Shown here: positions 13,987 through 59,500 of the stretch, in pieces
Numbering within the stretch: the first letter of the stretch is position 1
How the letters are laid out: each line of letters opens with the position of its first letter
From: an uncultured Gammaproteobacteria bacterium
Lineage (GTDB): Bacteria; Patescibacteriota; Patescibacteriia; 2-12-FULL-57-11
NCBI GenBank assembly: GCA_964648865.1
Contig: CAZYLV010000003.1
Location: forward strand, 33,731 to 97,730
Length of the DNA stretch: 64,000 nucleotides
Direction of reading: 5' to 3'
Made by a program: the position numbers and the translations under genes
Notes under the pieces: model-generated
What the model was told of the DNA's origin: nothing
The model's input: only the letters and a program-made list of their open reading frames with translations
The model's database searches: none

Positions 13987-14014
13987 GCTGACCCCGTCCG
14001 GGGTCAGCTTTCTT
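13987..14014 (+). terminator. Rho-independent terminator after mrdA
   Basis: GCTGACCCCG-tcc-CGGGGTCAGC perfect stem followed by TTTCTT. Confidence 0.6.
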
Positions 14015-14022
14015 CGTACGAT

Positions 14023-14481: not shown

Positions 14482-14510
14482 AGGTCCGGGGCGCGCTATA
14501 CTGCGTCGAT

Positions 14511-27855: not shown

Positions 27856-27873
27856 GCTGTAGAATGGACGCGT

Positions 27874-28341
27874 ATGCTACGTGTCCCCTGGTTCCGACAA
27901 TCCCCCGGCCGCTGCGGACCGACGGTCCTGCGGATGGTGCTGGCCTATCATGGCATTTCTGCCTCCGAGCGTCTGCTCGCCAAACTCACCGGCTGCAAAC
28001 CGGTCTGGCATCCGGAAGGCACCTCGGCGGAAGGCATCATCCGCGGCGCCGAACGCTTCGGGCTGCGCGGACGCGTCCTGGACCGAAGCAGCATCCCGGC
28101 GCTGCGCCGGCTGGTCCGTCGCGGCGTCCCGCCCATCGTCGATTGGTTTTCCGTGGACGAAGGCCACTACTCCGTGGTCGTCGACGTGACGGCGGACCGC
28201 GTGGTCCTGCGCGACCCCTCCGTCCCCGGCTTCGTGCGCCTCCCGCACGACACCTTCCTCCGCGTCTGGTTCGACTTCCACGGCGCAGCGCGCTCGCCGA
28301 AGGCGCTCATCGTGCGGCGCGCCATCGTGGTCTCGCTGTGA
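27874..28341 (+). CDS. peptidase C39-like domain protein (papain-fold Cys peptidase-like, 155 aa)
   Basis: Only the last 155 aa of track ORF 26560..28341 are taken as real. The pattern (..WFRQSPGRCGPTVLRMVLAYHG.. ..GHYSVVVD..) matches C39-like peptidases, with a Q/C ... H arrangement. The upstream part of that ORF overlaps clpB out of frame. Confidence 0.55.
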   Translation: MLRVPWFRQSPGRCGPTVLRMVLAYHGISASERLLAKLTGCKPVWHPEGTSAEGIIRGAERFGLRGRVLDRSSIPALRRLVRRGVPPIVDWFSVDEGHYSVVVDVTADRVVLRDPSVPGFVRLPHDTFLRVWFDFHGAARSPKALIVRRAIVVSL

Positions 28342-32869: not shown

Positions 32870-33805
32870 ATGCGCATCGTCTTTTGGGGGACCTCGACCT
32901 TCGCCGTCCCGGCCTTGCGCGCGCTGCACGCCGCTGATGGCGTCGAGCTCGTCGCCGTGGTCACCCAACCGGACAAGCCGCACGGCCGTCATGGCGACAT
33001 CCTGCCGGGCCCCGTGGCCGCCGCCGCGCGAGAGCTCGGCCTGACGCTGCTCCAGCCGGAGACCGTGAGGGACGAGACGCTCCGGCAGACGCTCGAGGAT
33101 GCGGCGCCCGACGTCGCGGTCGTGGCCGCCTACGGCCGCATCATCCCGGAGGCGCTGCTGGCGATCCCGCGGCTGGGCACGCTCAACATCCACCCGTCAT
33201 TGCTGCCCCGCTGGCGCGGTCCCTCACCCATCCAGGCGGCCATCGCGCACGGCGACGCCGAGACCGGGGTGAGCATCATGCTGCTCGACGCCGAGATGGA
33301 CCACGGTCCCCTGCTCGCGCAGCGCCGCGTCCCGCTCTCCGGGACCGAACGGTACCCCACGCTCGAGACGCACCTTGCCGAGGTCGGGGCCGCGCTGCTC
33401 TTGGAGACGGTCCCGCGGTACGTCTCAGGCGGACTGCGACCCGTGTCGCAGGACCACGACCAGGCCGTCTTCTGCGGCATGCTGGACCGGGACAGCGGCC
33501 GCGTGGACTGGAGCGCGTCCGCCGTCTCCATCGCCCGTCTCGACCGTGCCTACGATCCGTGGCCCGGCATCTGGACCGAGTGGACCGACGGCACGGCGAC
33601 GCTGCGCGTCAAGCTCTTCGATGCGCGCGTCGAGGACGTGGTCGCCGACTTGGGAGCCCTGTCGCAGCGGCAGGACCGGCTCCTCGTGGGAGCCCATGCG
33701 GAATCCGTGTCCTTCGGCGAACTGCAGGTCGAAGGCAAGAAGCGCCTGACCCTCACGGAGCTGCTGCGCGGGATGCCGATGTTCCTGGACGGACGGTTCC
33801 GCTGA
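32870..33805 (+). CDS. fmt: methionyl-tRNA formyltransferase
   Basis: 311 aa. An N-terminal formyltransferase domain (..LNIHPSLLPRWRG..) and a C-terminal domain. The def-fmt order supports the call. Confidence 0.93.
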   Translation: MRIVFWGTSTFAVPALRALHAADGVELVAVVTQPDKPHGRHGDILPGPVAAAARELGLTLLQPETVRDETLRQTLEDAAPDVAVVAAYGRIIPEALLAIPRLGTLNIHPSLLPRWRGPSPIQAAIAHGDAETGVSIMLLDAEMDHGPLLAQRRVPLSGTERYPTLETHLAEVGAALLLETVPRYVSGGLRPVSQDHDQAVFCGMLDRDSGRVDWSASAVSIARLDRAYDPWPGIWTEWTDGTATLRVKLFDARVEDVVADLGALSQRQDRLLVGAHAESVSFGELQVEGKKRLTLTELLRGMPMFLDGRFR

Positions 33806-35243
33806 TCCCGTACGCCAACAGCAGCACGCCTATCCCCAACGGATGGTTGAGCCACGGCGAGAGCAGATGCGCTCCCGCGGTGCCGAGCACGGCCAGGCCC
33901 AAACCGATATGCAGCCACGGACCGTCAGGGTCCGTTTTTGCCGCCTGCCAGGAGCGCCATAAGACCACGCAAAGGAAGAAGGCGAAGGCGATCGGACCGA
34001 CGAGACCCATCTTCAACCAGAAGTCCAGCCAGCCCCACTCGAAGGCGCTGGTCGTGTAATTGCCGTCAGGGAAATACGCGAGCAGACGCGGGTCACGCGT
34101 CACGTACGTCAGCTCCTTGCCGAAGCCGTGGCCGAGCAGCGGCTGCTCACGGATCGCCGGCCACATCACCCGCAGCAGGTTCATGCGGCTGTCGGCCGCG
34201 GGCTCGCCGGCGACCGCGCCGACGCGAGAGAACGCCGCGCCGCTCACCGAGCGCGAGAGCAGGAACGGCAACCCGATGCCCAACGCGGCGAACACGAGCA
34301 GGGCGAGCAGGTACGCGCCGAGCTTGGGACGCGTGACATGCCATGCGGCGACGGTCAGCGCGCCGAGCGCGGCGGCGACGGCGGCCGCGAGCCAGAAGGT
34401 CCGCGAGAAGGAGACGAAGACCACGGCGGCCGCGAGGATGCCCGAGACCTCGATGATGAGGCGGTTCGGCAGCGTCGGATCGCCTGGCGCCGCGCGGTCA
34501 CGCTCGGTGCGGGCGGCGACGTACAGCGCCGGTGCCATCAGGAACACGGCGAAGGTCCAGAGATGCGCCTGGAAGAAGACACGATAGAACCCGCCGGGCG
34601 CGCGCGTGATTTCCCCGAAGCCGAAATCGCGGATCCAGACGTACGAGGCGCGCAGCACCGGCTCCGGCGTCGCGTGGGTGTAGAGGAAGAACAGCAGCAG
34701 CGTCTGCACGGCACCGGCGGCGACCGCGCCGAGGACCGCGGAGAGGAGCATGGCGCGATCTTTGGCGTTCCGCAGCGCCAAGACGTACGTCGGCAGGAGC
34801 AGCAGGTACAGGTAGGCGTTGAGGTCCGAGAACACCCGGCCGAACGGCCGCTGCGTGAGGCCCCACGTCGCGCCCCAGGCCACGGCTGCGGCAAGCAGGA
34901 GCGTGGCCGGATGACGCAGGACGGGCGTGAGATGCCGCCGCAGGTCGGGGCGGCGCAGCTCCCAGGCCGTTGCCGCGAGCGCGACCGCGAACAGCACCAT
35001 GCGGACCGAGAGCCCTCCCCAGGGAAGGACGAAGCTCCGGCCCAAGGACCCTGCCGCGAGCTCCACGAGGACGACGGCCGTCCCGAGCGCGAATGACCGA
35101 CGGTACAGGAGCGCGGCCACGCCGGCCACGACGACGACGCCCACCGGCTCCAGCCCCCGCGCCTGCGAAGCGCCGAAGGAGGCGAGAAGCGCGAGGGACG
35201 TCGCCCCGAACGCGAGGAGATAGGGTCGCAGGGGAACCGTCAT
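33753..35243 (-). CDS. O-antigen ligase (Wzy_C) family polytopic membrane protein
   Basis: Internal Met of track ORF 33753..35285. About 12 TM segments and a Wzy_C-like loop (..RMNLLRVMWPAIREQPLLGHGFG..). Confidence 0.75.
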   Translation of the reverse strand: MTVPLRPYLLAFGATSLALLASFGASQARGLEPVGVVVVAGVAALLYRRSFALGTAVVLVELAAGSLGRSFVLPWGGLSVRMVLFAVALAATAWELRRPDLRRHLTPVLRHPATLLLAAAVAWGATWGLTQRPFGRVFSDLNAYLYLLLLPTYVLALRNAKDRAMLLSAVLGAVAAGAVQTLLLFFLYTHATPEPVLRASYVWIRDFGFGEITRAPGGFYRVFFQAHLWTFAVFLMAPALYVAARTERDRAAPGDPTLPNRLIIEVSGILAAAVVFVSFSRTFWLAAAVAAALGALTVAAWHVTRPKLGAYLLALLVFAALGIGLPFLLSRSVSGAAFSRVGAVAGEPAADSRMNLLRVMWPAIREQPLLGHGFGKELTYVTRDPRLLAYFPDGNYTTSAFEWGWLDFWLKMGLVGPIAFAFFLCVVLWRSWQAAKTDPDGPWLHIGLGLAVLGTAGAHLLSPWLNHPLGIGVLLLAYGISGTVRPGTSASRAAAP

Positions 35244-36109
35244 GCGTAGGTGGAACGCTTCATGCCGAGCATGCCGATGCCCCAAGCCAGAAGCATTGCC
35301 ACGGGGTGCAGGAGACGGACCAGGGCCCAGGCGAACGGTCCGTGATGCTTGCGCATGTACGCGGCCAGGCTCGCGTCATAGAAGCGTTGGCGCTGCGGCG
35401 CGAAGACCTGGGCGAAGCTCTGCCCGCCATGATGGATGACGGCCGTCTCCGCGTCGTACCAGACCTCCAGTCCGGCGTCGACCGCTTGCTTGCACCAGTC
35501 GACTTCCTCGAACCAGATGAAGTAGCGCTCATCCAGGGGCCCCAGGCGGTCCAGGCCGACGCGCGTCATCAGGAAGGCCGCGCCGATGACCTGCTCGGCC
35601 CGTTGCGTCTTGGCGTAGTCGAAGCCGTCGCGGAAATACCGCCGCAGGAACGGGAGGGAACGCGAGACGTGCTGCAGCTTGAGCATGATCATGGCCTGAT
35701 CGGCGGGGCGCGGGAAGTCCAGCACCGATCGCTGCGTGCTGCGGTCCGCGTTGAGCACGTGGCAGCCGACCACGGCGGCCTGCGGATGCGCGTCCGCGAA
35801 CCGTACCAGCGCGGCCGGCGCATCCTCGATGAGCTCGGTGTCCGGATTGAGGAGCAGCACGTGGCGGCCGGACGCCGTGCGGATGCCTTGGTTGCATGCG
35901 GCGGCGAATCCCCTGTTTTCGGCGTTGCCGATGAAGCGGACCTCAGGGAACGAGCGGCGCAGTTCGTCGCCGAGACCGTCGCCGCTGGCGTTGTCGATGA
36001 CCAGGGTCTCATGCGGGACACGCACATGCGCACGGATGGAGGCCAACAGCCGCAACACCAACGGCTTGACCCTGTAATTGACGATGACGATGGAGACCTC
36101 AGGCGTCAT
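35240..36109 (-). CDS. family 2 glycosyltransferase
   Basis: 289 aa from the internal Met (MTPEVSIVIVNYR). GT2 motifs (VIDNASGDG, DTE...). A 4-nt overlap with the ligase gene. Confidence 0.8.
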   Translation of the reverse strand: MTPEVSIVIVNYRVKPLVLRLLASIRAHVRVPHETLVIDNASGDGLGDELRRSFPEVRFIGNAENRGFAAACNQGIRTASGRHVLLLNPDTELIEDAPAALVRFADAHPQAAVVGCHVLNADRSTQRSVLDFPRPADQAMIMLKLQHVSRSLPFLRRYFRDGFDYAKTQRAEQVIGAAFLMTRVGLDRLGPLDERYFIWFEEVDWCKQAVDAGLEVWYDAETAVIHHGGQSFAQVFAPQRQRFYDASLAAYMRKHHGPFAWALVRLLHPVAMLLAWGIGMLGMKRSTYA

Positions 36110-36801
36110 AGGCGTCCGGCCCGCAGGGATTCCTTGAACGCCAACCAGACGTCCGAGACGCGCCAGGGCAGCCGGTGCTTGCGGCGGATGCGCGCCGTGG
36201 CCCTGAGCCGCGAGAGGCCGCCGCGTCGGCTCATGGTCCCCTCGCTCCGCACGCGGAACAGCACCTCCGGCACGCCGACGCCGACCTTCCCCTGCCCAAT
36301 CATGGTCAGCCACAGGTCCCAGTCCTGGAAACGTTCGAGCGACGCGTCGAATCCCGGGAAGTCGCGGCGACGGATGAGCGACATGGTGCTGATGAAGTTG
36401 TTGCGTCGCACCGCCGCCGCATCGAAGGGCCGCATGCCGAAGGCCTTGCCGCCCCACTCGAAGCCGCAGTACGCGAAGGCGGCCTCCGGATGCGCGGCGA
36501 GCGCCGCCGTGAGCCGCTCCAGCAGGCGCGGGTCGAGGGCCAGGTCGGCGTCGCAGAAGAAGAGCAGCTCTCCCGTCGCCATGCCGGCGCCGACGTTGCG
36601 TGCCGCGGCCGCGCCGCAGTGCGGCACGCTGCGCACCGCGGCACCGGCAGCGCGCGCGATGTCGGGCGTGCCGTCGGTGGAACCGTCGTCGACGACGATG
36701 ACCTCGTCGGCCCGTCGCGTCTGCGCCTGGACGCTCGCCAAGCAGGCGCCGAGCGTCTCCGCGGCGTCATGGGCCGGCACGATCACGCTGATGCGCTCCA
36801 T
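36106..36801 (-). CDS. family 2 glycosyltransferase
   Basis: 231 aa from the internal Met (MERISVIVPAHD). A DDGSTDGT motif and an FFCDADL (DxD-like) motif. Confidence 0.8.
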   Translation of the reverse strand: MERISVIVPAHDAAETLGACLASVQAQTRRADEVIVVDDGSTDGTPDIARAAGAAVRSVPHCGAAAARNVGAGMATGELLFFCDADLALDPRLLERLTAALAAHPEAAFAYCGFEWGGKAFGMRPFDAAAVRRNNFISTMSLIRRRDFPGFDASLERFQDWDLWLTMIGQGKVGVGVPEVLFRVRSEGTMSRRGGLSRLRATARIRRKHRLPWRVSDVWLAFKESLRAGRL

Positions 36802-37886
36802 AGCCGGTTCCAGGCGTCGACGAGCGGTTGGATGGCGTGGATGTAGCGGAAGCGCTCGGCGACGCGGCGGCGCCCCGTCTCGCCGAGCAGCGCGGCGTAG
36901 GCAGGGTCGCGCCACAGCGCGAGCAGGGCCTGGGCGATGGCGTTGGGGTCCTTGCCGTCAACGAGCAGGCCGGTCTCCTTGTCGAGCACCGCCTCGCCCA
37001 CCCCACCGCCGACGCCGGCGACCACGGCCTTGCCGAAGCCCGCCGCCTCGATGAACACGATGCCGAAGCCCTCGGGGTCGGCATCCGAGCTCTGCGTGGG
37101 AAGCGCGAAGAAGGCGCACTGCGCGAAGAGCGTCCGCAGCTCGTCGTCCGTCGCCGAACGGACCTCGACCGCGTCCTCAAGCCCGAGATGCGCACGGTCG
37201 TCGAGCACCTCGGCGCGTTCCGGACCGTCGCCGACCATGACCAGCCGGAAGTCCGGCGCCTCCGCGCGGAGCTGCGCCACGGCCCGCAGCAGCGTGCGGA
37301 AGCCCTTGCGCGGCACCATGCGGCCGGCCGCGAGCACGAAGCGTCGCGCCGGCGGCGGCTCGTCGCCCTTGGGATCCACGGCCGGACAGGGATAGACGAC
37401 GACGCCGTCCTTGAGCGGAGCCAGCGCCTTGGCCCGGGAGAGCGTGTACTCGCTGTTGGCGACGACGATGTCGGCGTCGCCGAGCACCCGGGCCGCCAGG
37501 GAGCGCTTGCGCGGCTGCAGCTCGGCACGGGCGATGTCCAGCCCGTGCACGAAGACCACGGTCTTCTTCTTGGAGAGGCGCGACGCCAGCCAGGCGGCGG
37601 TACCGTACGGCAAGAGGTGGCTGGCGGCGTAGGCGTCGCCGGAGACGTCCGCTTGGAGACGCAGGAGCGCGGGGACCAGCCCGATCCAGCGCGGCACCAG
37701 CCACCGGCTGCGGAACGGCGCGGGCACGACCGGGAACGGCGCCACAGCCTTCTCCGCCAGGTCCGGCGGCGCCAGAAGGCGGACGTCGGCGTACGTGCAG
37801 AAGGCCTCCAAGACGCCGTGCAGGTAGTTGGCGACGCCGCCGCGCACCGGAGGGTATTCGTCGCTGATGACGAGGAGACGCTTCAT
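36783..37886 (-). CDS. family 4 (GT-B) glycosyltransferase
   Basis: 367 aa from the Met (MKRLLVISDEYPP). C-terminal GT4 signature (..EGFGIVFIEAAGFGKAVVAG..). Confidence 0.85.
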   Translation of the reverse strand: MKRLLVISDEYPPVRGGVANYLHGVLEAFCTYADVRLLAPPDLAEKAVAPFPVVPAPFRSRWLVPRWIGLVPALLRLQADVSGDAYAASHLLPYGTAAWLASRLSKKKTVVFVHGLDIARAELQPRKRSLAARVLGDADIVVANSEYTLSRAKALAPLKDGVVVYPCPAVDPKGDEPPPARRFVLAAGRMVPRKGFRTLLRAVAQLRAEAPDFRLVMVGDGPERAEVLDDRAHLGLEDAVEVRSATDDELRTLFAQCAFFALPTQSSDADPEGFGIVFIEAAGFGKAVVAGVGGGVGEAVLDKETGLLVDGKDPNAIAQALLALWRDPAYAALLGETGRRRVAERFRYIHAIQPLVDAWNRLWSASA

Positions 37887-39346
37887 AGGGGCTGGGTCGG
37901 CTCGCCGGTCCGGCGGACGCTGCGCAGGAAGGCGGCCCAATCGTCCCCGGTGACGACACGCAGCACCCGGACGCAGAGCGCGTAGGCGGCCGCGCCGAGG
38001 ACGACCGAGAGCGGCAGCGGCAACGCACCGGACGTGAGCGTGACGAGAAGCCCCATGGCCGCGGCGGCCAGCGCGATGCGCGCCACGAGCGACGGCAGGG
38101 CATGGAGCGCCTTGCCCAGGTAGCGTGCCGTGGCCAGGAAGTCCATGAGGAACAAGGCGGCGTTCGAGGCGGCGAAGGCCAGGGCCGCGCCGACCACGCC
38201 GAAGCGCGGGATGAGCGCGACGTTGAGCGCGACGTTGAGGGCGGTCGTGACCCCTCGGTGCACGGAGCTGCGCTTCTCCATGCCGATGGCGTTCAAGAGC
38301 GATCCGGTGGGATACGAAAGGAAGACCACCGGCAGCGCCGCGACCATGATCAGGAAGGGCATGCGCGCGTCCCCGTACTGCGGCCAGATCGTCGTCAGGA
38401 TGTCGTCGGTGAGCACGAAGAGCCCAACGGCCATCGGCAACACGACCATGAGCAGATAGGCGAAGCTCCGCTCGAAGAGCGCGGCCAACCGCTCACGGGC
38501 ATGCGCCGCGTAGTTGGACATCGAGGGGTAGATGGCCGTGGCGAAGGCGCCGGGCACCAGCGTCTGCAGTGCCGTCGTGACCTTCGCCGGGATGGCGTAG
38601 ATGCCGACGTCGCGCTCCGTGGCGAGGAAGAGCAGCAGCACCGAGTCGGCCACGTTGTAGACCTTCTGGAAGACGTTCGAGGCGGCGAAGGCCGGGAGCA
38701 TGCGCAGCAGGTGCCGGGCGCGCGCCGGGTGGAAGTCCGGATGCACGACGGTGCCGAACTGCCGCGCGCCCATCGAGAACAGGAAGACGGCGTTGACGCC
38801 GCTCGCGGCGGCCAGCGCGCACATCAGCCAGAAGGGATCGCGCGTGGCAAGGAGCGCCGTCGTCCCGAGGGCCAGCGTCACGCTCTGGAAGAACAGCAGC
38901 GCAAGGGCCTCGACCCAGACCATCTGCCGCGCCCGGAAGAGCGCGTAGAAGACCATGGCGACGGCGTCGAACAGCAGGATGGCCGATGCCGGCGCCAGGA
39001 TGCGCAGCAGCTCCGGCGAGCTGCCCCGCCCGAGCATCACCAGCCAAAGCACGATGAGCGTGACCACGACCAGCGGGAGCTTGACGGCCAAGGCGGTGCG
39101 CACCAGGGGGACGGCCTCCTGCTCATGCTTGGCGGCCTCGCGGGTCAGGAGCGGCAGGAGCCCGAGGTCGGTGCCGACCTGCGCCAGGGAGACCACGGAG
39201 AGGACCCCGATGTAGGCGCCGAGCGTCTCCGGCGGCAGCTGGCTCGAAAGCAGCCAAAAGTAGCCGAAGGAGATGACCTTCTGGCCGACGACGGCCCCGG
39301 TGTACCAGAGCGTGTTGCGCACGATGCTGCCGGCGGAATGGGCCAT
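37883..39346 (-). CDS. Wzx-type oligosaccharide flippase (MOP superfamily polysaccharide biosynthesis protein)
   Basis: About 487 aa from the Met (MAHSAG..RNTLWY.. is a typical Wzx N-terminus). About 12-14 TM helices. Overlaps the GT4 start by 4 nt. Confidence 0.8.
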   Translation of the reverse strand: MAHSAGSIVRNTLWYTGAVVGQKVISFGYFWLLSSQLPPETLGAYIGVLSVVSLAQVGTDLGLLPLLTREAAKHEQEAVPLVRTALAVKLPLVVVTLIVLWLVMLGRGSSPELLRILAPASAILLFDAVAMVFYALFRARQMVWVEALALLFFQSVTLALGTTALLATRDPFWLMCALAAASGVNAVFLFSMGARQFGTVVHPDFHPARARHLLRMLPAFAASNVFQKVYNVADSVLLLFLATERDVGIYAIPAKVTTALQTLVPGAFATAIYPSMSNYAAHARERLAALFERSFAYLLMVVLPMAVGLFVLTDDILTTIWPQYGDARMPFLIMVAALPVVFLSYPTGSLLNAIGMEKRSSVHRGVTTALNVALNVALIPRFGVVGAALAFAASNAALFLMDFLATARYLGKALHALPSLVARIALAAAAMGLLVTLTSGALPLPLSVVLGAAAYALCVRVLRVVTGDDWAAFLRSVRRTGEPTQPL

Positions 39347-39435
39347 TGGGGAGGCGGGTTTCCCGATGATTTTCGCAGATTGCGGCGGCATTGACAAACG
39401 CGGCCCGAGCAGGTAGGACGTGTCCGAGGAGAAGC

Positions 39436-49483: not shown

Positions 49484-49963
49484 TCATCGGCCGTCGACCT
49501 GGCCGAGCAGCTTGCGGTATCGCCGCAGCAGGTTGATGGTCGTGTACCGGAAGTCTCCGGTCAGCTCTTCCGCCGCCCAGGGCGGGATCTCCAAGGTCTC
49601 ATCCCCGGCCACCTCCACGAAGCCGAGCGCCAGGCCGCAGTCGGGCTTGGTGATGCGGTCGACCGTCCAGACGCGTCCCCGGCCTTCACGGAGGTCCGTC
49701 TCGGCGCGGCTGACGACGATGTGGAACGTGTCCTCCCGCTTCTCGATGGCGCCGCGGATCGTCTCCACGGACCACTCGATGCTGCGGATCTCCTCGTCGC
49801 CCTCGTAGATGCGGACCAGGCCCGTAGGCCGGGTCCAGTCGTACTCGGCCGTCGTGTCCTCCGAGAACAACGCGAAGGTGATGATCTCTTGCGCCGCCAG
49901 GGTCGTGTCGATCCGCCCTGGGAGCACGCGGAAGACCCGGAATGTCCTTTGGGTTTCGTCCAT
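49484..49963 (-). CDS. hypothetical protein (159 aa)
   Basis: Internal Met with a strong SD (GGGAGGAAGG). No family recognised. Confidence 0.5.
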   Translation of the reverse strand: MDETQRTFRVFRVLPGRIDTTLAAQEIITFALFSEDTTAEYDWTRPTGLVRIYEGDEEIRSIEWSVETIRGAIEKREDTFHIVVSRAETDLREGRGRVWTVDRITKPDCGLALGFVEVAGDETLEIPPWAAEELTGDFRYTTINLLRRYRKLLGQVDGR

Positions 49964-50023
49964 GCTTCCTTCCTCCCAGGAAGAAAAGACCCTACCAGCG
50001 GATACGCATGTCGTCAACCCTGG

Positions 50024-50692
50024 TTACGCGAGGCGCGCCGCGATCCAGTCGGCGATTTCCTCGAGGAAATCGGGGTATGCCTCGAACATGCGCGTGCCAT
50101 GGCCGGCGTCCGCGAATCGCTTGACGTCCGTCCGCGCGAGCGAACGTTCCGCCAGCTTCTCCACCGCCGGACCGGAGATCTCGTCATCGGAACTGCTCGC
50201 CAGATACACGTGCCTATCACGTGTCAACGACTGGATGAGCGGCATGGTCGCGACGTCGCGGTAATTCAGGCCCGGGGACAGCGCGACGATGCCAGGCACC
50301 TCGGCATGCGCCGCGCCGTACTGGATCGCAAGGTTCGCGCCGATCGATGCGCCGACCAACACCAGCCGCGTGGTCGTGGCGCCATAGGCACGCTCCAGGA
50401 AAGCGACGGCCGCCTCGATATCCTTGATCTTCGCCTGATGTTCCGGATGCGTGAACGTCTGATAATCGAGCGTGCGCCCGTCCTTGGTGCGGCGGCTGCC
50501 TCCATGGCCGCGGAAGTCGATGGCCAGTGAGGAGACGCCGCGCGCCGCGAGCGCCTCCTGAAGGGGACCGTACGATTCCTTCGTGGCCGGCATCATGTGC
50601 AGCAACAGGGCCCAACGGCTCCCGTCCCCGACCTCGCGCACCAGGCCGTGGATGTCGACGCCGTCTTCCGTGGAAAACGAGACAGGTTTCAT
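50024..50692 (-). CDS. alpha/beta-hydrolase fold protein (dienelactone hydrolase/S9-like)
   Basis: 222 aa. Nucleophile elbow GASIG and an oxyanion HMMP region. Confidence 0.75.
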   Translation of the reverse strand: MKPVSFSTEDGVDIHGLVREVGDGSRWALLLHMMPATKESYGPLQEALAARGVSSLAIDFRGHGGSRRTKDGRTLDYQTFTHPEHQAKIKDIEAAVAFLERAYGATTTRLVLVGASIGANLAIQYGAAHAEVPGIVALSPGLNYRDVATMPLIQSLTRDRHVYLASSSDDEISGPAVEKLAERSLARTDVKRFADAGHGTRMFEAYPDFLEEIADWIAARLA

Positions 50693-50730: not shown

Positions 50731-52938
50731 TCACTCCACAGGTTCGGCGGGCGTCGACGTGGCACCCTGCAGACGGTCGATACGCGCGCGCAGCTCGCGG
50801 TTGTCCGGAGCCAGGGCGGCGGCGGCCTCGTACCAGCGCTGCGCGGCCGCGTTCTCCCCTTTCTGCTCCAACAGCTCGGCGATGCGGATGAGCGGCGTGG
50901 GATCCCCGCCGAGGAGCTGCGCGGCGCGGCGGGCAAGCGTCTCGGCCGCGGCCAGGTCGCCGTCCGCGCCCCGGCCGGTGAGCACGCCGGCGAGCAGGGT
51001 GAGCGGCGCGGCGTCGAGCGGCGCGGCCCGCACGCCGTCCTCGGCTGCGGCCACGGCCTCGTCCGTGCGGCCGGTCTCGATGAGCAGGGCCACGAGCCGC
51101 GCCCGTGCCGGGAAGACGGCCGGCGCCAGACCGACCGCCGCGCGGTAGGCCTCCTCCGCGCCGGCGGCGTCGCCGCGCAGGGAGCGCAGGTCGCCGAGGG
51201 CGATGGGGAACGTGGGGTTGGCGGGTTCCGCGGCGCGGGCGGCGGCGATCCAGGCGTCGAGCTCCGGGACGTCGCGGCCGGCGCGCACGGCCTGCATGCC
51301 GACGGTCACGGCGGCCTCGAGCAACGAGGCGCGGCCGGAGGACGCCGCCAGCCGGGCGCGGACAAGCGCCGCATCCAACGCGACGGTCGGGTCTTCCGCG
51401 GCGGCGGCGCGCTCCAGGGCGACCAGCGCGCCGACGGCATGGATCTCCGGCGGCGGGGTCCGGCCGAGCGCGGCGGCGTAGGCGGCTTCGGCATCGTCCG
51501 GCGTCCGCGACCGCAGGACGGCACCGAAGGCCCGGCCCGCGACGCAGGACCAGACGGTCGCGGCCAGGGCGATGGCCGCCAGCACGAGCAGCGCGGTACC
51601 GGTCCAGCCGAGCAGCAAGGCACGACGCCCGTCCTCGGTCTTCGCGGGCTTCTCCGTCTCAGGACGCGCACCGAGCAGCCAACCGACGCCGAGGGCGGAC
51701 ACGAACAGCCCGGCGGGGGGCACCATGCTCCAGGCGGCAGCGGCGACCAACGCGACGACGAGCGCGGCCATGCCGGCCGCCGCAAGACCGACATCGTCCG
51801 CGGGCGCGGTACGGCGGGCGAAGGCGCGCCGCACGCCACGCGCCGCCGGCACGGCCGCCGAGGTGCGGACCACGGAGACCAGCGACACGCCGACGAGCAC
51901 GAGGGACGCCGCGAGTCCCGCCAGGCCGAGGTCGTACAGCCATTGCAGGAGCACGTTCGGCGCCACCGGGAACCGCACGTTCCAGATGGCCGGACCGTTG
52001 AGCGATGCGGGCCGGACGCGGCCGAAGGCGTCGAGGAAGGTCCCCGGGCCGCTGCCGAAGACGGCGGCGAGCGGATCCTGACGCCAGAGGCCGGGGGCGG
52101 CGGCGAGCACGTCCATGGGGCGCAGATCCACCTCCGCCGGAACCGTGGCGACCAGCGGCGCAGGGAGACGCACCACGGCGAGCAGCAACGACACCGCGGC
52201 CAGCGCGAAGACGGCATTCGCCCCCGGCCGCCAGAGTCCGCCGAAGCGGCGCAACGCGGCGGCGAGCAGGACCACCAGCCCCAGGCACAGCACGCCCCAG
52301 ACGAGGCCGCGGTCCACGCGCACCAGGACGGCCAGGTGCAGCAGCGCCGACGCGACCCAGAGGGCGCGGGACGCGGGGGGCTGGCCGGCGCGGACGAGCG
52401 CGGCGGCGGCGATCACGATCGCCGGGAGGGAAAGCAGCGCGGCATGCGTCGGGACGGCCGCGGCGAAGGACAGCACGTCGCCGGAGGGCAGCGGCCACGA
52501 CGGGAAGAAGGTATGCAGCAGGAGCGACGCCTGGTGGAGACTCAGCGACGCGACGATCCCGACCGGGAGCGTGCGCCGTGCCGCAGGGACGCCGGCCGCC
52601 GGGACGGCCGCGGCCAGGGCGAGCAGCAGTGAGCCGGAGGCCGTCCAGAACACCGGACGGCCCCAGAACGCGGCCAGGACATCGCCCGAACGCAGGACCG
52701 AGACGAGCGTCACCAGAACGAAGGCGCCCAAGGCCGCTGCGGCGATCCGCGACGGTGGCCGCGCGGCGACGACCGGCAGGGCGCCCCACAGCGCGAGCAG
52801 GGACAACGTCAGGACGGCTGCGGCGCGCGCGGCGCCGATGTCGGCGGAGCCGGGGCCTACCCAGAACAACGCGGCGGCCAGTGCCGACAGGAGGAAGACG
52901 CCGGGCAGGTGCGGACGCGCGTCGGACAGGCGTTTCAT
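50731..52938 (-). CDS. Wzy_C (O-antigen ligase / O-oligosaccharyltransferase-like) polytopic membrane domain fused to a long C-terminal TPR array (735 aa)
   Basis: Internal Met of track ORF 50731..53481. About 10-12 TM helices containing the ..AVFGSGPGTFLDAF.. Wzy_C-type loop. The last ~300 aa are Ala-rich TPR-like repeats (..AEEAYRAAVGLAP.. ..AQRWYEAAAALAP..). Confidence 0.7.
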   Translation of the reverse strand: MKRLSDARPHLPGVFLLSALAAALFWVGPGSADIGAARAAAVLTLSLLALWGALPVVAARPPSRIAAAALGAFVLVTLVSVLRSGDVLAAFWGRPVFWTASGSLLLALAAAVPAAGVPAARRTLPVGIVASLSLHQASLLLHTFFPSWPLPSGDVLSFAAAVPTHAALLSLPAIVIAAAALVRAGQPPASRALWVASALLHLAVLVRVDRGLVWGVLCLGLVVLLAAALRRFGGLWRPGANAVFALAAVSLLLAVVRLPAPLVATVPAEVDLRPMDVLAAAPGLWRQDPLAAVFGSGPGTFLDAFGRVRPASLNGPAIWNVRFPVAPNVLLQWLYDLGLAGLAASLVLVGVSLVSVVRTSAAVPAARGVRRAFARRTAPADDVGLAAAGMAALVVALVAAAAWSMVPPAGLFVSALGVGWLLGARPETEKPAKTEDGRRALLLGWTGTALLVLAAIALAATVWSCVAGRAFGAVLRSRTPDDAEAAYAAALGRTPPPEIHAVGALVALERAAAAEDPTVALDAALVRARLAASSGRASLLEAAVTVGMQAVRAGRDVPELDAWIAAARAAEPANPTFPIALGDLRSLRGDAAGAEEAYRAAVGLAPAVFPARARLVALLIETGRTDEAVAAAEDGVRAAPLDAAPLTLLAGVLTGRGADGDLAAAETLARRAAQLLGGDPTPLIRIAELLEQKGENAAAQRWYEAAAALAPDNRELRARIDRLQGATSTPAEPVE

Positions 52939-53384
52939 GGGCGGCTGAGGTTCTCGGAAATCAGGGACTCGATGTCGTCGACCCAACGGGCGTCGCCCGG
53001 CGTCGGCTCCTCGTCTTGCCGAGGAGCGGCCGGGGGGAGTGCCCGCGCATCGGACCGCGGCAGGGATGGCCGTGCGAAGGCACCGCGGATGAAGGCGGCC
53101 GCGGCGCGGTCGGCGGCGTCGGCGACCTCGATGCTGCCGAGCGCCACTCTCCCCCACCACAACGCCGCCGTCTCGGAGACGCGGAAGGCGAACTCGTCCC
53201 AGGCGGCGACGCCTCGGGTGAGTGCGCTGCGCGCATCGGCCAGCGGGTGCCAGCGGGAGACGGTCTGGACCGCGCGCCACGGCGCGGCCGCCACGTCGAT
53301 GCGCAGGTCCTCGAAGCCGCGCGCCGCGACAGGTGCGGGCAGGAGCACGGCGGCAAGCAGTACGGCGACGACGACCCCCCTCAT
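52935..53384 (-). CDS. small secreted protein (149 aa, signal peptide MRGVVVAVLLAAVLLPAPVAARG)
   Basis: Internal Met of track ORF 52935..53867. Its ATG overlaps the upstream ATPase stop (ATGA) and its stop overlaps the next gene's start by 4 nt. Confidence 0.5.
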   Translation of the reverse strand: MRGVVVAVLLAAVLLPAPVAARGFEDLRIDVAAAPWRAVQTVSRWHPLADARSALTRGVAAWDEFAFRVSETAALWWGRVALGSIEVADAADRAAAAFIRGAFARPSLPRSDARALPPAAPRQDEEPTPGDARWVDDIESLISENLSRP

Positions 53385-55150
53385 GGCTGCGGCGGTCCGT
53401 CGAATTCGACCACTTCGCCCGGCGCCGGGCGGCCGCTCTTGGCCGAGAACGGCACCGGCTCCTGCTCCTTGAGCGCGGCAAGCGGCGCCGGCGGCTGCGC
53501 GGCCTCCTCGACGCGCTTGCGCTCGTCCTTGACGATCTTGAAGCAGTCGTCGCAGTAGTACGGGCGGCTGGGGTCCGGCTGGAAGGTCAGCTGGAGCTTC
53601 TTGCCGCAGCGTGCGCATGTGGCGTCGTGGAGCTTCTTGGCTTGCTTCGCCGGGGCGGGCGCCGACTTCTCGCCAGCGGGCGCCGGCTGGGGCGCGGGCG
53701 CTGCGGGCCTCGGGGCAGGCCGGGCAGGCGACGCGCTGCGGGGCGGCATCCGCCGCGCGGGAGCGGCGGATGCGGCACGCGGCGCCGGTCGCGGCGCGGC
53801 GCCCGTACGCGCGGGGGACGCGGCCGGCGTGCTGACGAAGGTCTCCCCGCCCGCCAGCCCGGACCACTGCAGGATCTTCTCCTCGATGACGGCGCGCGGC
53901 GTGGCGTAGCGCTCCCGCGACACCTTGATGACCTTGTCCGTGCTGCCGGTGCGGACGTTGATGGGCGGCAGCGTATTGGCGGAGAAGATCTCCGAGGCCA
54001 CGCCGTCGATCATCAGTTTGACGTAGACCTCGAACTTGGTGAGGTTGACAAGGTCCTCCGGCAGGAAACGCGGCGCCACCTCCTGCTCCAGGAACAGGGC
54101 GTCCGAGGCGCCGACGCGGAAGAAGACCATCGTGCCGACGTTGCCGAAGACGGCCGGCCGCACGTAGTCCTCGTCGAGCTGCTCGATGTACTGGTGGGCG
54201 ATGACCAGGTTGAGCCGGTACTTGCGCGCCTCGGAGAGGATGTTGGCGAAGCTGGCCGTGGCGAAGTTCTGGAACTCGTCGACGTACAGGTAGAAGTCGC
54301 GGCGGTCCTCCTCCGGCATGTCGACGCGCTCCATGGCGGCGAGCTGCAGCTTGGTGATGAGCATGCCGCCGAGCAGGCGCGAGGAGTCCTCGCCGATGCG
54401 GCCTTTGGCCAGGTTGATGATTAGGATCTTGCCCTCGTCCATGACCTGCCGCATGTCGATGGTCGACTTCACCTGGGCCACGATGTTGCGGATGATGGTC
54501 GCCGCCAGGAACTGTCCGACCTTGTTCTGGATCGGGGCGATGGCCTCGTTGCGGAAGCGGTCCTCCCAGCGCGCGTACTCGTCCTGCCAGAAGGCCTTGA
54601 CCACCGGATCCCTGACCACCGCGAGCACGCGCTTGCGGAACTCCTTGTCCACGAGGATGCGGTTGATGCCGAGCAACGTCGAGCCGGGGTACTCGAGCAG
54701 CGTCAGGATGCAGTTGTTGAGGATGTGCTCCATCCGCGGGCTCCAGACGTCGGGCCAGATCTTCTTGAAGACGCCCATCAGGCCCTGGGCCGCGAGCGGC
54801 CGGGTGCGCTCGTCCACGGCCTCGAGCACGTTGAAGCCGATCGGGAAGTCGAGGTCGGCCGGGTTGAAGTAGACGACGTCGTTGATGCGGTGCGCCGGGA
54901 TGAAATCCAGGAGCTTCTCGGCGGTGTCGCCGTGCGGGTCGACGTAGGCCACGCCATGCCCCGCGGCGATGTCGTTGAGGATCATGTTCTCGAGCAGGGT
55001 CGTCTTGCCCATGCCCGTCTTGCCGAGCACGTAGACGTGCCGGCGGCGGTCGTCGGTCTTGATGCCGAACTTCCGCCGGGCGTTGCGGAAGTTGGTCTCG
55101 GCGAAGAAGTTGATCTCGCTGTCGTGGTCGTGGTCGTACTGCAGCGCCAT
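53381..55150 (-). CDS. type IV secretion coupling-protein-like ATPase (VirD4/TraG/TraD family, soluble) with a Pro/Ala-rich linker and C-terminal C4 zinc ribbon
   Basis: 589 aa. Walker A LGKTGMGKTTL and Walker B LYVDEFQNF. A T4CP C-terminal signature (..IAHQY.. ..FGNVGTMVFFRVG..). A C-terminal zinc ribbon CARCGKK...CDDC. No N-terminal TM helices. Confidence 0.75.
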   Translation of the reverse strand: MALQYDHDHDSEINFFAETNFRNARRKFGIKTDDRRRHVYVLGKTGMGKTTLLENMILNDIAAGHGVAYVDPHGDTAEKLLDFIPAHRINDVVYFNPADLDFPIGFNVLEAVDERTRPLAAQGLMGVFKKIWPDVWSPRMEHILNNCILTLLEYPGSTLLGINRILVDKEFRKRVLAVVRDPVVKAFWQDEYARWEDRFRNEAIAPIQNKVGQFLAATIIRNIVAQVKSTIDMRQVMDEGKILIINLAKGRIGEDSSRLLGGMLITKLQLAAMERVDMPEEDRRDFYLYVDEFQNFATASFANILSEARKYRLNLVIAHQYIEQLDEDYVRPAVFGNVGTMVFFRVGASDALFLEQEVAPRFLPEDLVNLTKFEVYVKLMIDGVASEIFSANTLPPINVRTGSTDKVIKVSRERYATPRAVIEEKILQWSGLAGGETFVSTPAASPARTGAAPRPAPRAASAAPARRMPPRSASPARPAPRPAAPAPQPAPAGEKSAPAPAKQAKKLHDATCARCGKKLQLTFQPDPSRPYYCDDCFKIVKDERKRVEEAAQPPAPLAALKEQEPVPFSAKSGRPAPGEVVEFDGPPQP

Positions 55151-55153
55151 ACG

Positions 55154-56635
55154 CTAGACCGGAAGGTTCTCGGGCGGCGCGCCGGTGCCGGCCTGGGAGG
55201 GCGCCGGCTGCTGCTTGGGGCGGATCGGCGGGGCCGCGGGCTCCACGGGCAGACGCAGCGGCGGCTCGGCGCGCTTGGACTCGGCCTTCTTGACGGTCGG
55301 GGTCTTCACCAGGAGCGACGGGAAGTGCCAGAGCGACGCCAGCTCCTCGGTCGACAGGATGTAGGGCGTGGCGCCGCGGAAGTTATGCCGGTACTTGTAC
55401 GCCCAGAAGATGGACTTGATGCGCTCGTTGGTCGTCTTGTAGAACGTGCCGGACAGGTAGAAGAAGATCGGATTGAGCTGCCAGAAGTAATCGTACTTGG
55501 TGGTCACCGGGCCGTAGAAGCCGAGCTTGTTGAGGTTGAGGGTGGTGAACTGCTGCAGCGCGCCGCGCACGAAGGAGATGATCGTGCCGGTGCGGAAGTT
55601 CTTCTTGGGGGCGATGTAGATGAAGCGGATCTTGGTCTTGAGCCCGATCTTGGAGAGCTTCTGCTCGACGCGCTCCACGACGAACCGCTCGCCCGGGGAG
55701 AGGTGCAGCATCTGGGAGCGCGGCTCCTCCTTCTTCTGCTGCGGTTTGGCCGGCTCGCCGCCGATCAGCCCGGAGACGCCGATGTCCAGCGCTTGGAGCG
55801 GCAGGTCCATGGCCTTGTCGAGCGCCGTCACCTTGGGCGCGACCTTGGCGCCGATGAGCTTCTTGACCAAGGTCTCGCCGGCGTCCTTCCAGTCCTGGCT
55901 GCAGGTCGTCACCAGGATCTGCAGCCAGACCTGCTCGCCCGCGCCCAGCTTGGCCAAGCCCTCGAGCAGACCGGCCATGGGATCCTTGAACTCGCCCGAG
56001 ATGGGATCGCTGAAATCGAGGTAGGTCTTGATGGGGTAGAACTCCGGCTTGCTCGGCACGAACTCCGAGCCGAAGAAACCCCACTCCTTGTTCGGCCAGG
56101 GCCACTGCTGCGGCACGTTGAGCACGTAGTCCTCGACCTCGGTGATCTCCGCCTCGGGATACTGCGCGTAGATGGTGGCCTCGACGAGGTCGCGGTACTT
56201 CTCCCAGACGCGCACCAGGAACTGCACGTACCCTTCGATGGAGACGATCTCGAAGCTGAAGACGGGCGGCATCTTGCCGTCCCAGAACCGCTCCTTGCGC
56301 GTGAAGCTGGAGTGCGCGCCGAGGAGTTGGGCGAAGATGTTCTCGACGGCCTTGGGTGTCTGCTCCGTGGACTTGGGCACGTCGACCGCCAAGAGCACCG
56401 GGTTGACCGAGTTGATGAACAGGAACTGGCGCTCGTTGATCCAGATCCACCAGAAACCGCGCAGGAAGACGATGAGTACGGGGATCCAGCCGCCGGCGCG
56501 GAACAGCTCCCACATGACGATCACCGGATGCTGGGCGCCGAGCCAGTCGATATACGCCAGAAAGGCACCGACGTCGATGGAGATCATCGGCATATGCGCA
56601 ACCAGTATAACACAGGAAAGACAAAGGAGGGGCAT
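55154..56635 (-). CDS. membrane protein (493 aa): N-terminal TM helices plus a large soluble domain; partner of the T4CP-like ATPase
   Basis: Track ORF. A hydrophobic N-terminus (..WIPVLIVFLRGFWWIWI..). No family recognised. Separated from the ATPase gene by 3 nt. Confidence 0.6.
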   Translation of the reverse strand: MPLLCLSCVILVAHMPMISIDVGAFLAYIDWLGAQHPVIVMWELFRAGGWIPVLIVFLRGFWWIWINERQFLFINSVNPVLLAVDVPKSTEQTPKAVENIFAQLLGAHSSFTRKERFWDGKMPPVFSFEIVSIEGYVQFLVRVWEKYRDLVEATIYAQYPEAEITEVEDYVLNVPQQWPWPNKEWGFFGSEFVPSKPEFYPIKTYLDFSDPISGEFKDPMAGLLEGLAKLGAGEQVWLQILVTTCSQDWKDAGETLVKKLIGAKVAPKVTALDKAMDLPLQALDIGVSGLIGGEPAKPQQKKEEPRSQMLHLSPGERFVVERVEQKLSKIGLKTKIRFIYIAPKKNFRTGTIISFVRGALQQFTTLNLNKLGFYGPVTTKYDYFWQLNPIFFYLSGTFYKTTNERIKSIFWAYKYRHNFRGATPYILSTEELASLWHFPSLLVKTPTVKKAESKRAEPPLRLPVEPAAPPIRPKQQPAPSQAGTGAPPENLPV

Positions 56636-57572: not shown

Positions 57573-59321
57573 TCAGCCCTTCCGGACGCCCACGAGCCAG
57601 GCGTGCTTCTCCATCCACGGCCCGGCGATCGACAGCAGGAAGCCGCGCGTCACGAGGATGGCCGTGAACATGGACACCAGGATGCCGATGGCCAGCGTCA
57701 CGGCGAAGCCCTTGACCAGCGAGGTGCCGAGCCAGACCAGGATGGCGCAGGTGATGAGCGAGGAGACGTTGGAGTCGCGGATGGACAGCCAGGCGCGGCG
57801 GAAGCCCTCCTCGATGGCCTCGCGCACCGGCTTGCCGGACCGCAGCTCCTCCTTGAACCGCTCGAAGATGAGGATGTTGGCGTCCACGGCCATGCCGATG
57901 GACAGGATGAACCCGGCGATGCCCGCGAGCGTCAGCGTGACGTCGATACCCTTGAAGACCGCCAGGGTGAGCGCCGCGTAGACGGCCAGCGCCAGCGAGG
58001 CCACGAGCCCCAGGAAGCGGTAGAAGACGAGCATGAAGGCCACGACCAGCGCGAAGCCGATGAGCCCTGCCATGAGCGACTTCTCGAGCGAGGCGGCGCC
58101 GAGCGTCGGGCCGACGGTCTGCTGGGTGATGAGCGAGATGGGCACGGGGAGCGCGCCGGCGTTGAGGTTGCGCACCATCTGCTTGGCCTCGGGGATGGTG
58201 AAGGTGCCGGTGATCTGCGCCTCGCCGCCGAGGATCTCCTGCTGGACGATGGGGTCGGAGAGCTTGACGCCGTCCAGGAAGATGGCCAGCGGCCGGCCGA
58301 CGTTGCGCTTGGTGATGTCGGCGAACAGCTGGGCGCCCTCGGCGTCGAACTGCAGGCCGATCTGCACCGCACCCGTCTGCTGGTCGAAGAGCACGTTGGC
58401 GCGCTTGAGGTTCTTGCCGGTCAGGCCGCTGCCCTTCCATTCCTCGGGCGGGACGATGTCCGTCTCCGCGAGCTTGCCGATGAGGATGTGGCTGGCCTGC
58501 CATTCCGGCACGGTCGAGCCGAGGGTCTCGCCCTCCGTCGTCTCGACCTCAGGTCCTGCGACCTCGCGCTCGTCGGTCTTGAGGATGACGTGGTACCCGA
58601 ACTCCGTGGCCACCGGCGTCTTGGTGTATGCGCCCTTCTCGAGCCCGTCGACGGCCTGCTGGAACGCCGGAATCATCGCGCCTTGGCCGAACCAGCCCAG
58701 GTCGCCGCCCTGCTCCTTGCTGCCCGGGTCGTCCGAGAGTTCCTTGGCGAGCGCGGCGAAGTCCTCGCCCGCGTCGAGACGCGCGATGACCTCCTCGGCC
58801 TTCTTCTTGGCATCGGCGTCGCTCTCGGCGAGCTGCTGCCGCTCCTCTTCCGTGAGGGCGCGCGACGGCTCGGTGCTGACTTCCTTGAATTCCAGGAGCG
58901 GCGTCTCGCCGATCTTGCGGATGGCCTCCTCGACGTCCAGGATGCCGGCCAGGTCCACGATCAGCCGGTGGTCGTCGCCGACGATGGCCGTCTGCACCAG
59001 CGGCTCGGAGACGCCGAAGGCGTTGACCCGGCGCTCGATGACCTCACGGAGCCCGTTCAACTGCTCGCGCCGCTCGCCCTCGATGATGCCGGACATGTCG
59101 GCCTGGTAGACGAGATGCGAGCCGCCCTGCAGGTCGAGCCCGAGGCGGAACGGTTTGCTCGGGAAGCCGGCCACCGGGTACGCGAAGAGCGCGGCCAGGA
59201 CGCCGAACAGGATGACGCCCGCGGACAGCGCGCGGAAGCGCAGCGCGCCGCCGCGGAAGAACGAGGCCAACGGCGGACCGGATTTCCTGGAGGACTGGGG
59301 ATTCGCCATATCGCGCGGCAT
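57573..59321 (-). CDS. secD: protein translocase subunit SecD
   Basis: The start is taken at the Met (MPRDMANPQ...) of track ORF 57573..59465. Motif ..LGLDLQGGSHLVY.., a periplasmic domain and C-terminal TM helices. Confidence 0.9.
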   Translation of the reverse strand: MPRDMANPQSSRKSGPPLASFFRGGALRFRALSAGVILFGVLAALFAYPVAGFPSKPFRLGLDLQGGSHLVYQADMSGIIEGERREQLNGLREVIERRVNAFGVSEPLVQTAIVGDDHRLIVDLAGILDVEEAIRKIGETPLLEFKEVSTEPSRALTEEERQQLAESDADAKKKAEEVIARLDAGEDFAALAKELSDDPGSKEQGGDLGWFGQGAMIPAFQQAVDGLEKGAYTKTPVATEFGYHVILKTDEREVAGPEVETTEGETLGSTVPEWQASHILIGKLAETDIVPPEEWKGSGLTGKNLKRANVLFDQQTGAVQIGLQFDAEGAQLFADITKRNVGRPLAIFLDGVKLSDPIVQQEILGGEAQITGTFTIPEAKQMVRNLNAGALPVPISLITQQTVGPTLGAASLEKSLMAGLIGFALVVAFMLVFYRFLGLVASLALAVYAALTLAVFKGIDVTLTLAGIAGFILSIGMAVDANILIFERFKEELRSGKPVREAIEEGFRRAWLSIRDSNVSSLITCAILVWLGTSLVKGFAVTLAIGILVSMFTAILVTRGFLLSIAGPWMEKHAWLVGVRKG

Positions 59322-59500
59322 GGTAACGGATGCCGCGGCATCCCTGCAAGCTTGGGCACTTGCCAAGCCCTGGAGGCGTGGTAGGTTGGGAGTGGTCACG
59401 GCATGCCCCGCCCCACCCCAACTACCCCGGGGTTCGCCGCGACCCCGCCGCTTCCGGTCTCGCAACCCTCCCCCCGAGAGACCGTGGAACGGCGGTTTTT

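Follow-up and report, generated by a model that had tools for sequence, protein, structure and literature searches.

A WaaL-fold membrane protein with a tetratricopeptide repeat domain as a candidate glycan transferase of the Patescibacteria cell envelope

We analysed a window of 64,000 nucleotides, by which we mean the whole stretch of DNA under consideration (contig CAZYLV010000003.1 of GenBank assembly GCA_964648865.1, positions 33,731 to 97,730, G+C content about 70%), and focused on a minus-strand gene for a membrane protein of 735 amino acids (aa) with a C-terminal tetratricopeptide repeat (TPR) domain, in the following called the target. The closest related genomes are Patescibacteria metagenome-assembled genomes, one of which came from a scan of genome contigs. 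Judged from sequence comparison, the target is a divergent, high-GC member of a large Patescibacteria family whose membrane domain carries no annotation. Our preferred reading, held with moderate confidence from structure models and from analogy with characterised enzymes, is that the target would act outside the membrane as a transferase of a lipid-linked glycan, using a non-canonical active site and a TPR domain that holds the acceptor in position. An earlier note on this DNA, made from the letters alone, had labelled the protein as Wzy_C and proposed that it forms a protein O-glycosylation module with a small secreted protein encoded just upstream. The parts of the target referred to below are the following.

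50731..52938, minus strand: target gene, an open reading frame (ORF) with an ATG start encoding the 735-aa WaaL-fold membrane protein with C-terminal TPR domain (AlphaFold pLDDT 92.8)
51529..52938, minus strand: membrane domain, aa 1-470, 13 transmembrane helices, WaaL-like fold (Foldseek match 7tpg_B; hhalign to P0154)
51955..52173, minus strand: large extracytoplasmic loop, aa 256-328 (conservation over 129 representatives; predicted topology)
52036..52056, minus strand: GSGPGTF motif, aa 295-301 (family conservation; aligned with the motif of P0154)
50764..51501, minus strand: extracytoplasmic TPR solenoid, aa ~480-725 (Pfam TPR_15, TPR_8 and TPR_19; model)
50734..50763, minus strand: C-terminal tail ATSTPAEPVE (sequences P0001-P0006)

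Word-indexed protein searches returned only 2 and 8 matches, limited by the low-complexity composition, and an exhaustive HMMER search gave 489 representative clusters at E≤1e-3, the representatives being clustered at 50% identity. Most family members are 750-800 aa long (typically about 770) and have C-terminal TPRs, and only five of the 489 are close relatives of the target. Three short representatives, P0024 (458 aa), P0035 (486 aa) and P0047 (450 aa), are seemingly devoid of the TPR domain, which may reflect truncated gene calls or a genuine absence of TPRs. It is clear from the 489 clusters, together with other TPR proteins that do match Pfam Wzy_C, that TPR-bearing WaaL-like proteins are common. 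The earlier note had considered the TPR fusion unusual, and had reasoned that its proposal would be undermined if such proteins proved common and tied to ordinary O-antigen ligation; common they are. Literature searches for the family, and for Wzy_C proteins with TPRs in Patescibacteria, found no characterisation.

The relationship of the membrane domain to WaaL comes from profile-profile and fold comparison without a direct Pfam match, so that the domain is to be placed in the fold but beyond the Pfam family. A profile of 14 family sequences (A2) retrieved five Wzy_C-positive proteins with E-values from 3e-15 to 1e-6, most of them with TPRs. When the family profile A5 was aligned by hhalign to P0154, in which Pfam Wzy_C is found at aa 248-398, the probability was 96.7% and the E-value 3.7e-10 over 338 aligned columns, and the alignment covered the whole membrane domain (columns 13-365) with the Wzy_C region included. 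Because a Foldseek search with the full-length model was swamped by TPR matches, aa 1-478 were modelled separately (pLDDT 88.3), and the sole significant match of this model in the PDB was the WaaL structure 7tpg_B (E 5.7e-4, probability 1.0, TM-scores 0.49 and 0.56); matches to the membrane glycosyltransferases AftA and AglB were non-significant (probability 0.14-0.38, TM-score at most 0.25). Searches of the PDB sequences gave only noise with the family profile and left the membrane domain unmatched with P0154, the Pfam families PMT and ArnT did not match the target, an NCBIfam scan of the target was without a ligase match, and Pfam Wzy_C was unmatched in the nine representatives scanned (listed as P0003-P0009, P0011, P0014 and P0024). 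By these profile and model comparisons the membrane domain is WaaL-fold, yet lies outside Pfam Wzy_C as this family is now modelled. The Wzy_C label thus stands as a relationship to WaaL/Wzy_C proteins and falls as a direct family assignment.

Conservation over 129 representatives picks out, in the membrane domain, K/R38, S84, G93, W214, P267, E269, G295-S-G-P-x-T-F301, F305, R/K309, N314, W319, R/K322, F323, G338 and G341, all of which are retained by the target. Of the residues invariant in the family, the loop between aa 256 and 328 holds P267, E269, the G295-S-G-P-x-T-F301 stretch, R309, N314, W319 and R322. The GSGPGTF motif, which the earlier note had read correctly and which occupies aa 295-301, is the most conserved motif of the family, with G295 and G297 present in 128 of the 129 sequences and P298 in 120, and in P0154 it aligns with a GxGPxxY/F motif that falls within the Pfam Wzy_C match. 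Such strong polar conservation in an outer loop argues for a ligand-binding or catalytic site and not for a decayed domain.

The full-length AlphaFold model (pLDDT 92.8, pTM 0.92) has 13 transmembrane helices. With the N-terminus inside, the short inner loops contain 16 Lys and Arg residues and the short outer loops 4, and the segment RGVRRAFARR (aa 367-376) is predicted inside. The conserved loop and the TPR domain are both predicted on the outer face, where an extracytoplasmic glycan transferase would need them, and on the same side, which was the arrangement asked for by the earlier note. The repeats themselves are well supported, with Pfam matches within aa 550-713 to TPR_15 (8e-9), TPR_8 (6e-7) and TPR_19 (2e-6), with a modelled solenoid of helical hairpins (aa ~480 to 723), and with Foldseek matches of the full-length model to the TPR domain of OGT and to consensus TPR proteins; the array is real but measures about 250 aa and not the roughly 300 aa first suggested. 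It is followed by an outward tail whose ATSTPA core, or a near variant of it, recurs in the close clade (P0002-P0006), and the tails of the wider family are rich in Pro, Thr, Ser and Ala. From its sequence the ATSTPA tail may serve as a linker, as a sorting signal or as a place where the enzyme glycosylates itself.

A source of lipid-linked glycan is possibly present in the same window. About 15 kb from the target lies a cluster of glycan genes, and the earlier note was right that a second Wzy_C protein adjoins two family 2 glycosyltransferase (GT2) genes, a GT4 gene and a Wzx gene there.

33753..39397, minus strand: glycan cluster, ~15 kb from the target (Pfam matches)
33753..35285, minus strand: canonical Wzy_C protein (Pfam Wzy_C, E 4e-12)
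about 35240..36915, minus strand: two GT2 genes (Pfam)
36783..37940, minus strand: GT4 gene (Pfam)
37883..39397, minus strand: Wzx gene (Pfam)

The window also contains a 773-aa ORF (22375..24696, minus strand) that combines a WecG/TagA/CpsF glycosyltransferase domain at aa 117-274 with an entire glutamyl-tRNA synthetase at aa 300-769; this is a fusion, or else the ORF is over-long and spans two genes. The presence of a TagA-type domain suggests that undecaprenyl-diphosphate (Und-PP)-linked polymers are made.

Based on the fold, on the conserved polar outer loop, on the Wzx/GT cluster and WecG/TagA-type domain, and on analogy with WaaL, PglL, TacL and TfpW, we propose that the target acts outside the membrane. 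A Wzx/GT-type cluster, such as the one described above, would make a polyprenyl-diphosphate-linked glycan that is flipped outward, and the WaaL-fold domain of the target would take the flipped glycan on the outer face. The TPR solenoid would position the acceptor, which may be an exported protein or another envelope component, and in the active site E269, R/K309, N314, W319 and R322 would stand in for the Arg-Arg-His residues of WaaL and PglL. The small secreted protein is an addition found in the close clade and may act as a partner or as one acceptor. We count in favour of this proposal also the size of the family, the position of its fetched loci among housekeeping or envelope genes, and the synteny with a coupling ATPase and DUF8128 that is described below.

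A number of results weigh against the outward transferase. Pfam Wzy_C (PF04932) matched neither the full-length target nor aa 1-513, even at E≤10, and at this threshold only TPR families matched the target, PglL_A (PF15864) not being among them. Alignment of the family by hhalign to Escherichia coli WaaL and to the window's own Wzy_C protein was without usable signal, and the Foldseek TM-score to WaaL is only about 0.5. The residues common to WaaL and PglL are R215, R288 and H338 in the E. coli protein, equal to R224, R298 and H349 in Neisseria meningitidis PglL (PMC3643930), and we mapped them through motif context (TQTR/SRG, GARxxxY/RxxxW and HLHN/PHN) and hhalign, an alignment that is remote and not a residue-level superposition. 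By this mapping the canonical Arg-Arg-His set is not conserved in the family: R215 falls on position 210, which is Arg in the small clade of the target only and mostly Phe or Tyr elsewhere (Arg in 6 of 129 sequences), R288 falls on position 273, with Arg in the target and Ser, Gly or Asn in the family, and H338 falls on position 327, with Pro in the target and Ser, Ala, Tyr, Phe or Asn in the family. No column of the family alignment between aa 1 and 480 has 25% His or more. The synteny of the family with a coupling ATPase, described below, extends to the unrelated SecDF and MnmA genes, and part of it may therefore be inherited gene order and not function. Judged from the alignments, the family forms a separate branch of the superfamily that is without the His, and it has an invariant set of its own in K/R38, E269, R/K309, N314, W319 and R322, the last five of which are in the outer loop.

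The same fold and topology could serve a ligase or polymerase with a non-protein acceptor, using the TPR domain as a scaffold for polymer handling or for partners. In the manner of TacL or WaaL it would join an Und-PP-linked polymer to a wall polymer or a glycolipid of the membrane, and in the manner of Wzy it would polymerise repeat units. A Wzy_C-domain protein of this kind, TacL, makes lipoteichoic acid in a monoderm (PMC5727136), and the WecG/TagA-type domain in the window would fit with such a role, as would the FemAB, FtsW/RodA or GT4 genes that adjoin some loci of the family. The best NCBIfam matches of the TPR region are moreover TPR proteins of polysaccharide systems (PrsT and PgaA), far below the cut-offs of these families. 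However, the canonical Wzy_C protein in the Wzx/GT cluster already fits the role, the target gene lies outside any glycan cluster, the catalytic residues common to WaaL proteins are not conserved, and TPR-fused membrane glycosyltransferases are best documented with protein acceptors (TfpW preprint, bioRxiv 10.1101/2020.04.19.049825). We regard a non-protein acceptor handled in this way as rather unlikely.

The genes around the target form a tightly packed run on the minus strand, in the order DUF8128, VirD4-like ATPase, 149-aa ORF, target and alpha/beta hydrolase.

55154..56635, minus strand: DUF8128 membrane protein, 493 aa, the usual partner gene of the coupling protein (PF26449 match on orthologues; synteny)
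53381..55150, minus strand: orphan VirD4/TraG-like coupling ATPase, a type IV coupling protein (T4CP; Pfam TrwB_AAD_bind, TraG-D_C, DUF87 and zf_Tbcl_2)
52935..53384, minus strand: small secreted or anchored protein, 149 aa (ATGA overlaps on both sides)
50024..50692, minus strand: alpha/beta hydrolase, directly downstream of the target (Pfam Hydrolase_4 and Abhydrolase_6; junction sequence)

The stop of the ATPase gene and the small ORF share an ATGA overlap, as do the small ORF and the target, and the 149-aa gene is by these overlaps translationally coupled on both sides. A 916-aa ORF starting with TTG was considered as the target gene and rejected, since the orthologues begin at the ATG after the small ORF; a protein identical to the 735-aa target is present in NCBI and Logan records. 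Judging from the junction sequence, the start of the hydrolase is probably the ATG at 50692, 38 nt past the stop of the target, and this gene is conserved in the close clade and in locus L018. SecD and SecF genes precede the run, which is followed by a conserved 177-aa ORF, MnmA, a D-Ala-D-Ala carboxypeptidase, alanyl-tRNA synthetase (AlaRS) and ribosomal protein genes.

The linkage to the orphan ATPase and DUF8128 is more widely conserved than the small protein and was missed in the earlier note. The ATPase is devoid of transmembrane segments; it has a Pro/Ala-rich linker and, at its C-terminus, a treble-clef zinc finger of the form CxxC-x17-CxxC. Its membrane anchor may be supplied by the DUF8128 protein, the N-terminal helices of which are hydrophobic. 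The two genes are conserved as a pair across many Patescibacteria loci. A metagenome scan yielded 61 loci of the target family, roughly 29 of which, according to our reading of the hit table, had enough upstream sequence to judge. In 11 of these approximately 29 loci the VirD4-like gene is directly upstream, to which come the close-clade loci that extend upstream. The ATPase and WaaL-like genes overlap or are at most 127 bp apart in nine of the 11 loci, are about 300 bp apart in L007, and have a small ORF between them in L018. L042 has an extra 740-aa ORF of unknown type (5726..7948) between its T4CP and WaaL-like/TPR genes, and L010 and L012 have the ATPase gene at a more downstream position. 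A DUF8128 gene was found adjoining that of the ATPase in L007, L009, L018, L031 and L042, and the block is flanked by SecDF in L018, L031 and L042 and by MnmA in several loci. The metagenome loci have a G+C content of 37-56%, and with the window included the synteny is thus seen from 37 to 70%. Loci without the T4CP gene had no consistent neighbour, but a mixture of ParB, FemAB, YqeY, GT4, FtsW/RodA and PheT. The gene order suggests that the T4CP/DUF8128 genes and the target gene are co-transcribed.

Given this linkage, the target could be a catalytically inactive WaaL-fold scaffold in an envelope machine of DUF8128 and the VirD4-like ATPase, for example a device for substrate export or uptake. 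The loss of the canonical His and Arg residues and the close T4CP gene in most loci of the arrangement are consistent with such a scaffold, as is the survey of Patescibacteria in which only 148 of 5,713 VirD4-type T4CP homologues were near virB4, the authors suggesting possible exaptation of these thousands of genes (PMC12102498). An inactive protein would, however, hardly be expected to keep near-invariant polar loop residues (E269, R/K309, N314, W319 and R322) and a Gly-rich motif common to active Wzy_C proteins, and members of the family are also found away from the T4CP gene, in addition to which the synteny takes in SecDF and MnmA as mentioned above. The scaffold appears decidedly unlikely to us.

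The small protein was the acceptor in the module originally proposed. It is indeed, as first described, a 149-aa signal-peptide ORF directly upstream of the target with an ATGA overlap, and 11 homologues of 143-159 aa were found, all in the close clade. In every context examined the gene is directly upstream of the target homologue, and wherever the sequence extends far enough upstream it is preceded by the VirD4-like gene. The N-terminus of the homologues resembles a signal peptide and has a conserved (V/A)xA|R site; beyond it, the core is conserved, an Ala/Pro-rich linker varies, and the C-terminal helix RWVDDVERLF is again conserved. In all 11 the linker has at least one Ser or Thr (as in AAIGTAAPP), which recalls the sites of low complexity at which PglL acts (PMC3643930), and genes of O-oligosaccharyltransferases (O-OTases) often adjoin the gene of their substrate (PMC3643930; bioRxiv 10.1101/2020.04.19.049825). 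A Pfam scan of the small protein, N_methyl included, was without match, and the protein is thus not a pilin.

Against the module, a Ser or Thr is expected by chance in a low-complexity linker of 30 residues, and no Ser or Thr is invariant across the homologues. The wider family has 10 loci in which no ORF separates the ATPase gene from the directly adjoining WaaL-like gene, and only L018 has a 187-aa ORF at this place, whose similarity to the small protein is doubtful. Being absent from the wider family, the small protein cannot be the general acceptor of the family. From the sequence comparisons it is a clade-specific addition that the enzyme family can do without; it may serve as a partner or as one acceptor of the target, so that what remains of the original claim is an exported protein, gene-coupled to the target in the close clade, which is a weak acceptor candidate. 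With the catalytic residues of PglL and WaaL and the PglL_A motif also absent from the target family, a two-gene O-glycosylation module is improbable in spite of the coupling and the constant pairing.

Pilins would be obvious alternative acceptor candidates. The 64-kb window contains no pilin or pilus genes. The relative L067 (GCA_004297205.1, SCUL01000002.1) has genes for a prepilin (N_methyl), T2SSE and T2SSF directly after MnmA (14007..16972), at the position that in the window is held by the D-Ala-D-Ala carboxypeptidase and AlaRS.

It is also conceivable, if very unlikely, that DUF8128, the VirD4-like ATPase and the WaaL-fold/TPR protein with its missing His are components of one envelope machine, specific to Patescibacteria, for secretion-coupled glycosylation. 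An ATP-driven translocase derived from a T4CP would then deliver a substrate that is glycosylated or anchored outside by a WaaL-like enzyme with a new active site, with the small protein as an added subunit or substrate in the close clade, and such secretion-coupled glycosylation would have no described counterpart.

Some further genes of the window deserve mention. SecD (57573..59465, minus strand) has a PPIC-type peptidyl-prolyl isomerase (rotamase) domain inserted at aa 211-298, between the P1 subdomains, and the same architecture was called on the L067 orthologue. The 177-aa ORF between the hydrolase and MnmA (49484..50017, minus strand) has no Pfam match and is conserved in relatives of the clade: L001 and L003 give tblastn matches, and L067-L069 have an ORF of 157-163 aa in this place. 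ClpB appears to be split over two adjoining plus-strand ORFs, the first (25184..25954) with Clp_N and the start of the first ATPase domain and the second (25961..27823) with AAA_lid_9, AAA_2 and D2-small; the gene may truly be divided, or a frameshift or an error of assembly may be responsible. The long plus-strand ORF that follows (27864..29777) is without Pfam match, and its likely product begins at an internal Met and has a signal-peptide-like segment (MRVVYSAGMAWLKKAMGIVLSGALLASGMAPLAARA).

Patescibacteria account for much of bacterial diversity, many of them are host-attached, and their envelope biochemistry is almost unknown. The WaaL-fold/TPR family is widespread in the phylum, its membrane domain is annotated neither in Pfam nor in NCBIfam, and it is without the canonical catalytic His. 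The family is thus a tangible candidate for the glycosylation of the surface or the attachment of polymers in these bacteria, with E269, R/K309, N314, W319 and R322 defined as targets for mutation, and it is tied to the orphan VirD4-like ATPases, which number in the thousands in Patescibacteria and may have been exapted (PMC12102498).

Among known enzymes, WaaL is the closest in fold. Like the target, WaaL (Cupriavidus metallidurans 7TPG and the E. coli protein) has a core of many transmembrane helices with a large outer loop, and at the equivalent place the two proteins have a Gly-rich motif and after it a helix that ends in GxxG. WaaL has 12 transmembrane helices, whereas the target has 13 and in addition the outer C-terminal TPR domain; there is no similarity at the sequence level, and the equivalents of R215, R288 and H338 are not conserved in the family of the target, where the position of the His is Pro327 in the target itself. 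A monoderm host should be without lipid A-core. Patescibacteria are regarded as monoderm (PMC12102498), which makes classical O-antigen ligation to lipopolysaccharide unlikely.

The O-OTases PglL, PilO (TfpO), PglS and TfpM belong, we infer, to the same fold superfamily as the target. The pglL gene often adjoins a pilin gene (PMC3643930), and in the close clade the target adjoins the gene of a small exported protein that is not a pilin. Unlike PglL, the target matches neither Wzy_C nor PglL_A in Pfam, its family does not conserve the equivalents of R224, R298 and H349, and in the literature consulted a TPR domain is not described for any of the characterised enzymes of the PglL family. The view of the earlier note that the target does something other than ordinary O-antigen ligation is supported by the monoderm host group, and its reading as a protein O-glycosylation enzyme has precedents in TfpW and pglL; against this reading, the residues common to PglL and WaaL are not conserved in the family and PglL_A does not match. 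The target is neither a classical O-antigen ligase nor a recognisable PglL-type O-OTase.

In general, enzymes of the Wzy_C family use Und-PP-glycans and transfer them to lipid A-core, protein or glycolipid (PMC3643930, PMC5727136). TacL, the lipoteichoic acid ligase of Streptococcus pneumoniae, is a member that works in a monoderm envelope and transfers an Und-PP-linked polymer (PMC5727136), but it has 397 aa with no TPR domain described, is positive for Pfam Wzy_C and uses a glycolipid acceptor. The Pfam-positive Wzy_C proteins with TPRs (P0153-P0157), of which P0153 was named "O-antigen ligase/tetratricopeptide (TPR) repeat protein" by its source, have the same overall architecture as the target and are likewise uncharacterised, but they retain the SRG, RxxxW and HN motifs that are not found in the target family. 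A membrane glycosyltransferase combined with TPRs is also known from the eukaryotic TMTC O-mannosyltransferases. A precedent in layout is TfpW, a pilin arabinosyltransferase/OTase of Pseudomonas aeruginosa whose gene adjoins that of its substrate, pilA, and whose outward C-terminal TPR domain is thought to engage the protein acceptor (bioRxiv 10.1101/2020.04.19.049825); TfpW was modelled on ArnT and has a DDx motif, whereas the fold of the target matches WaaL instead.

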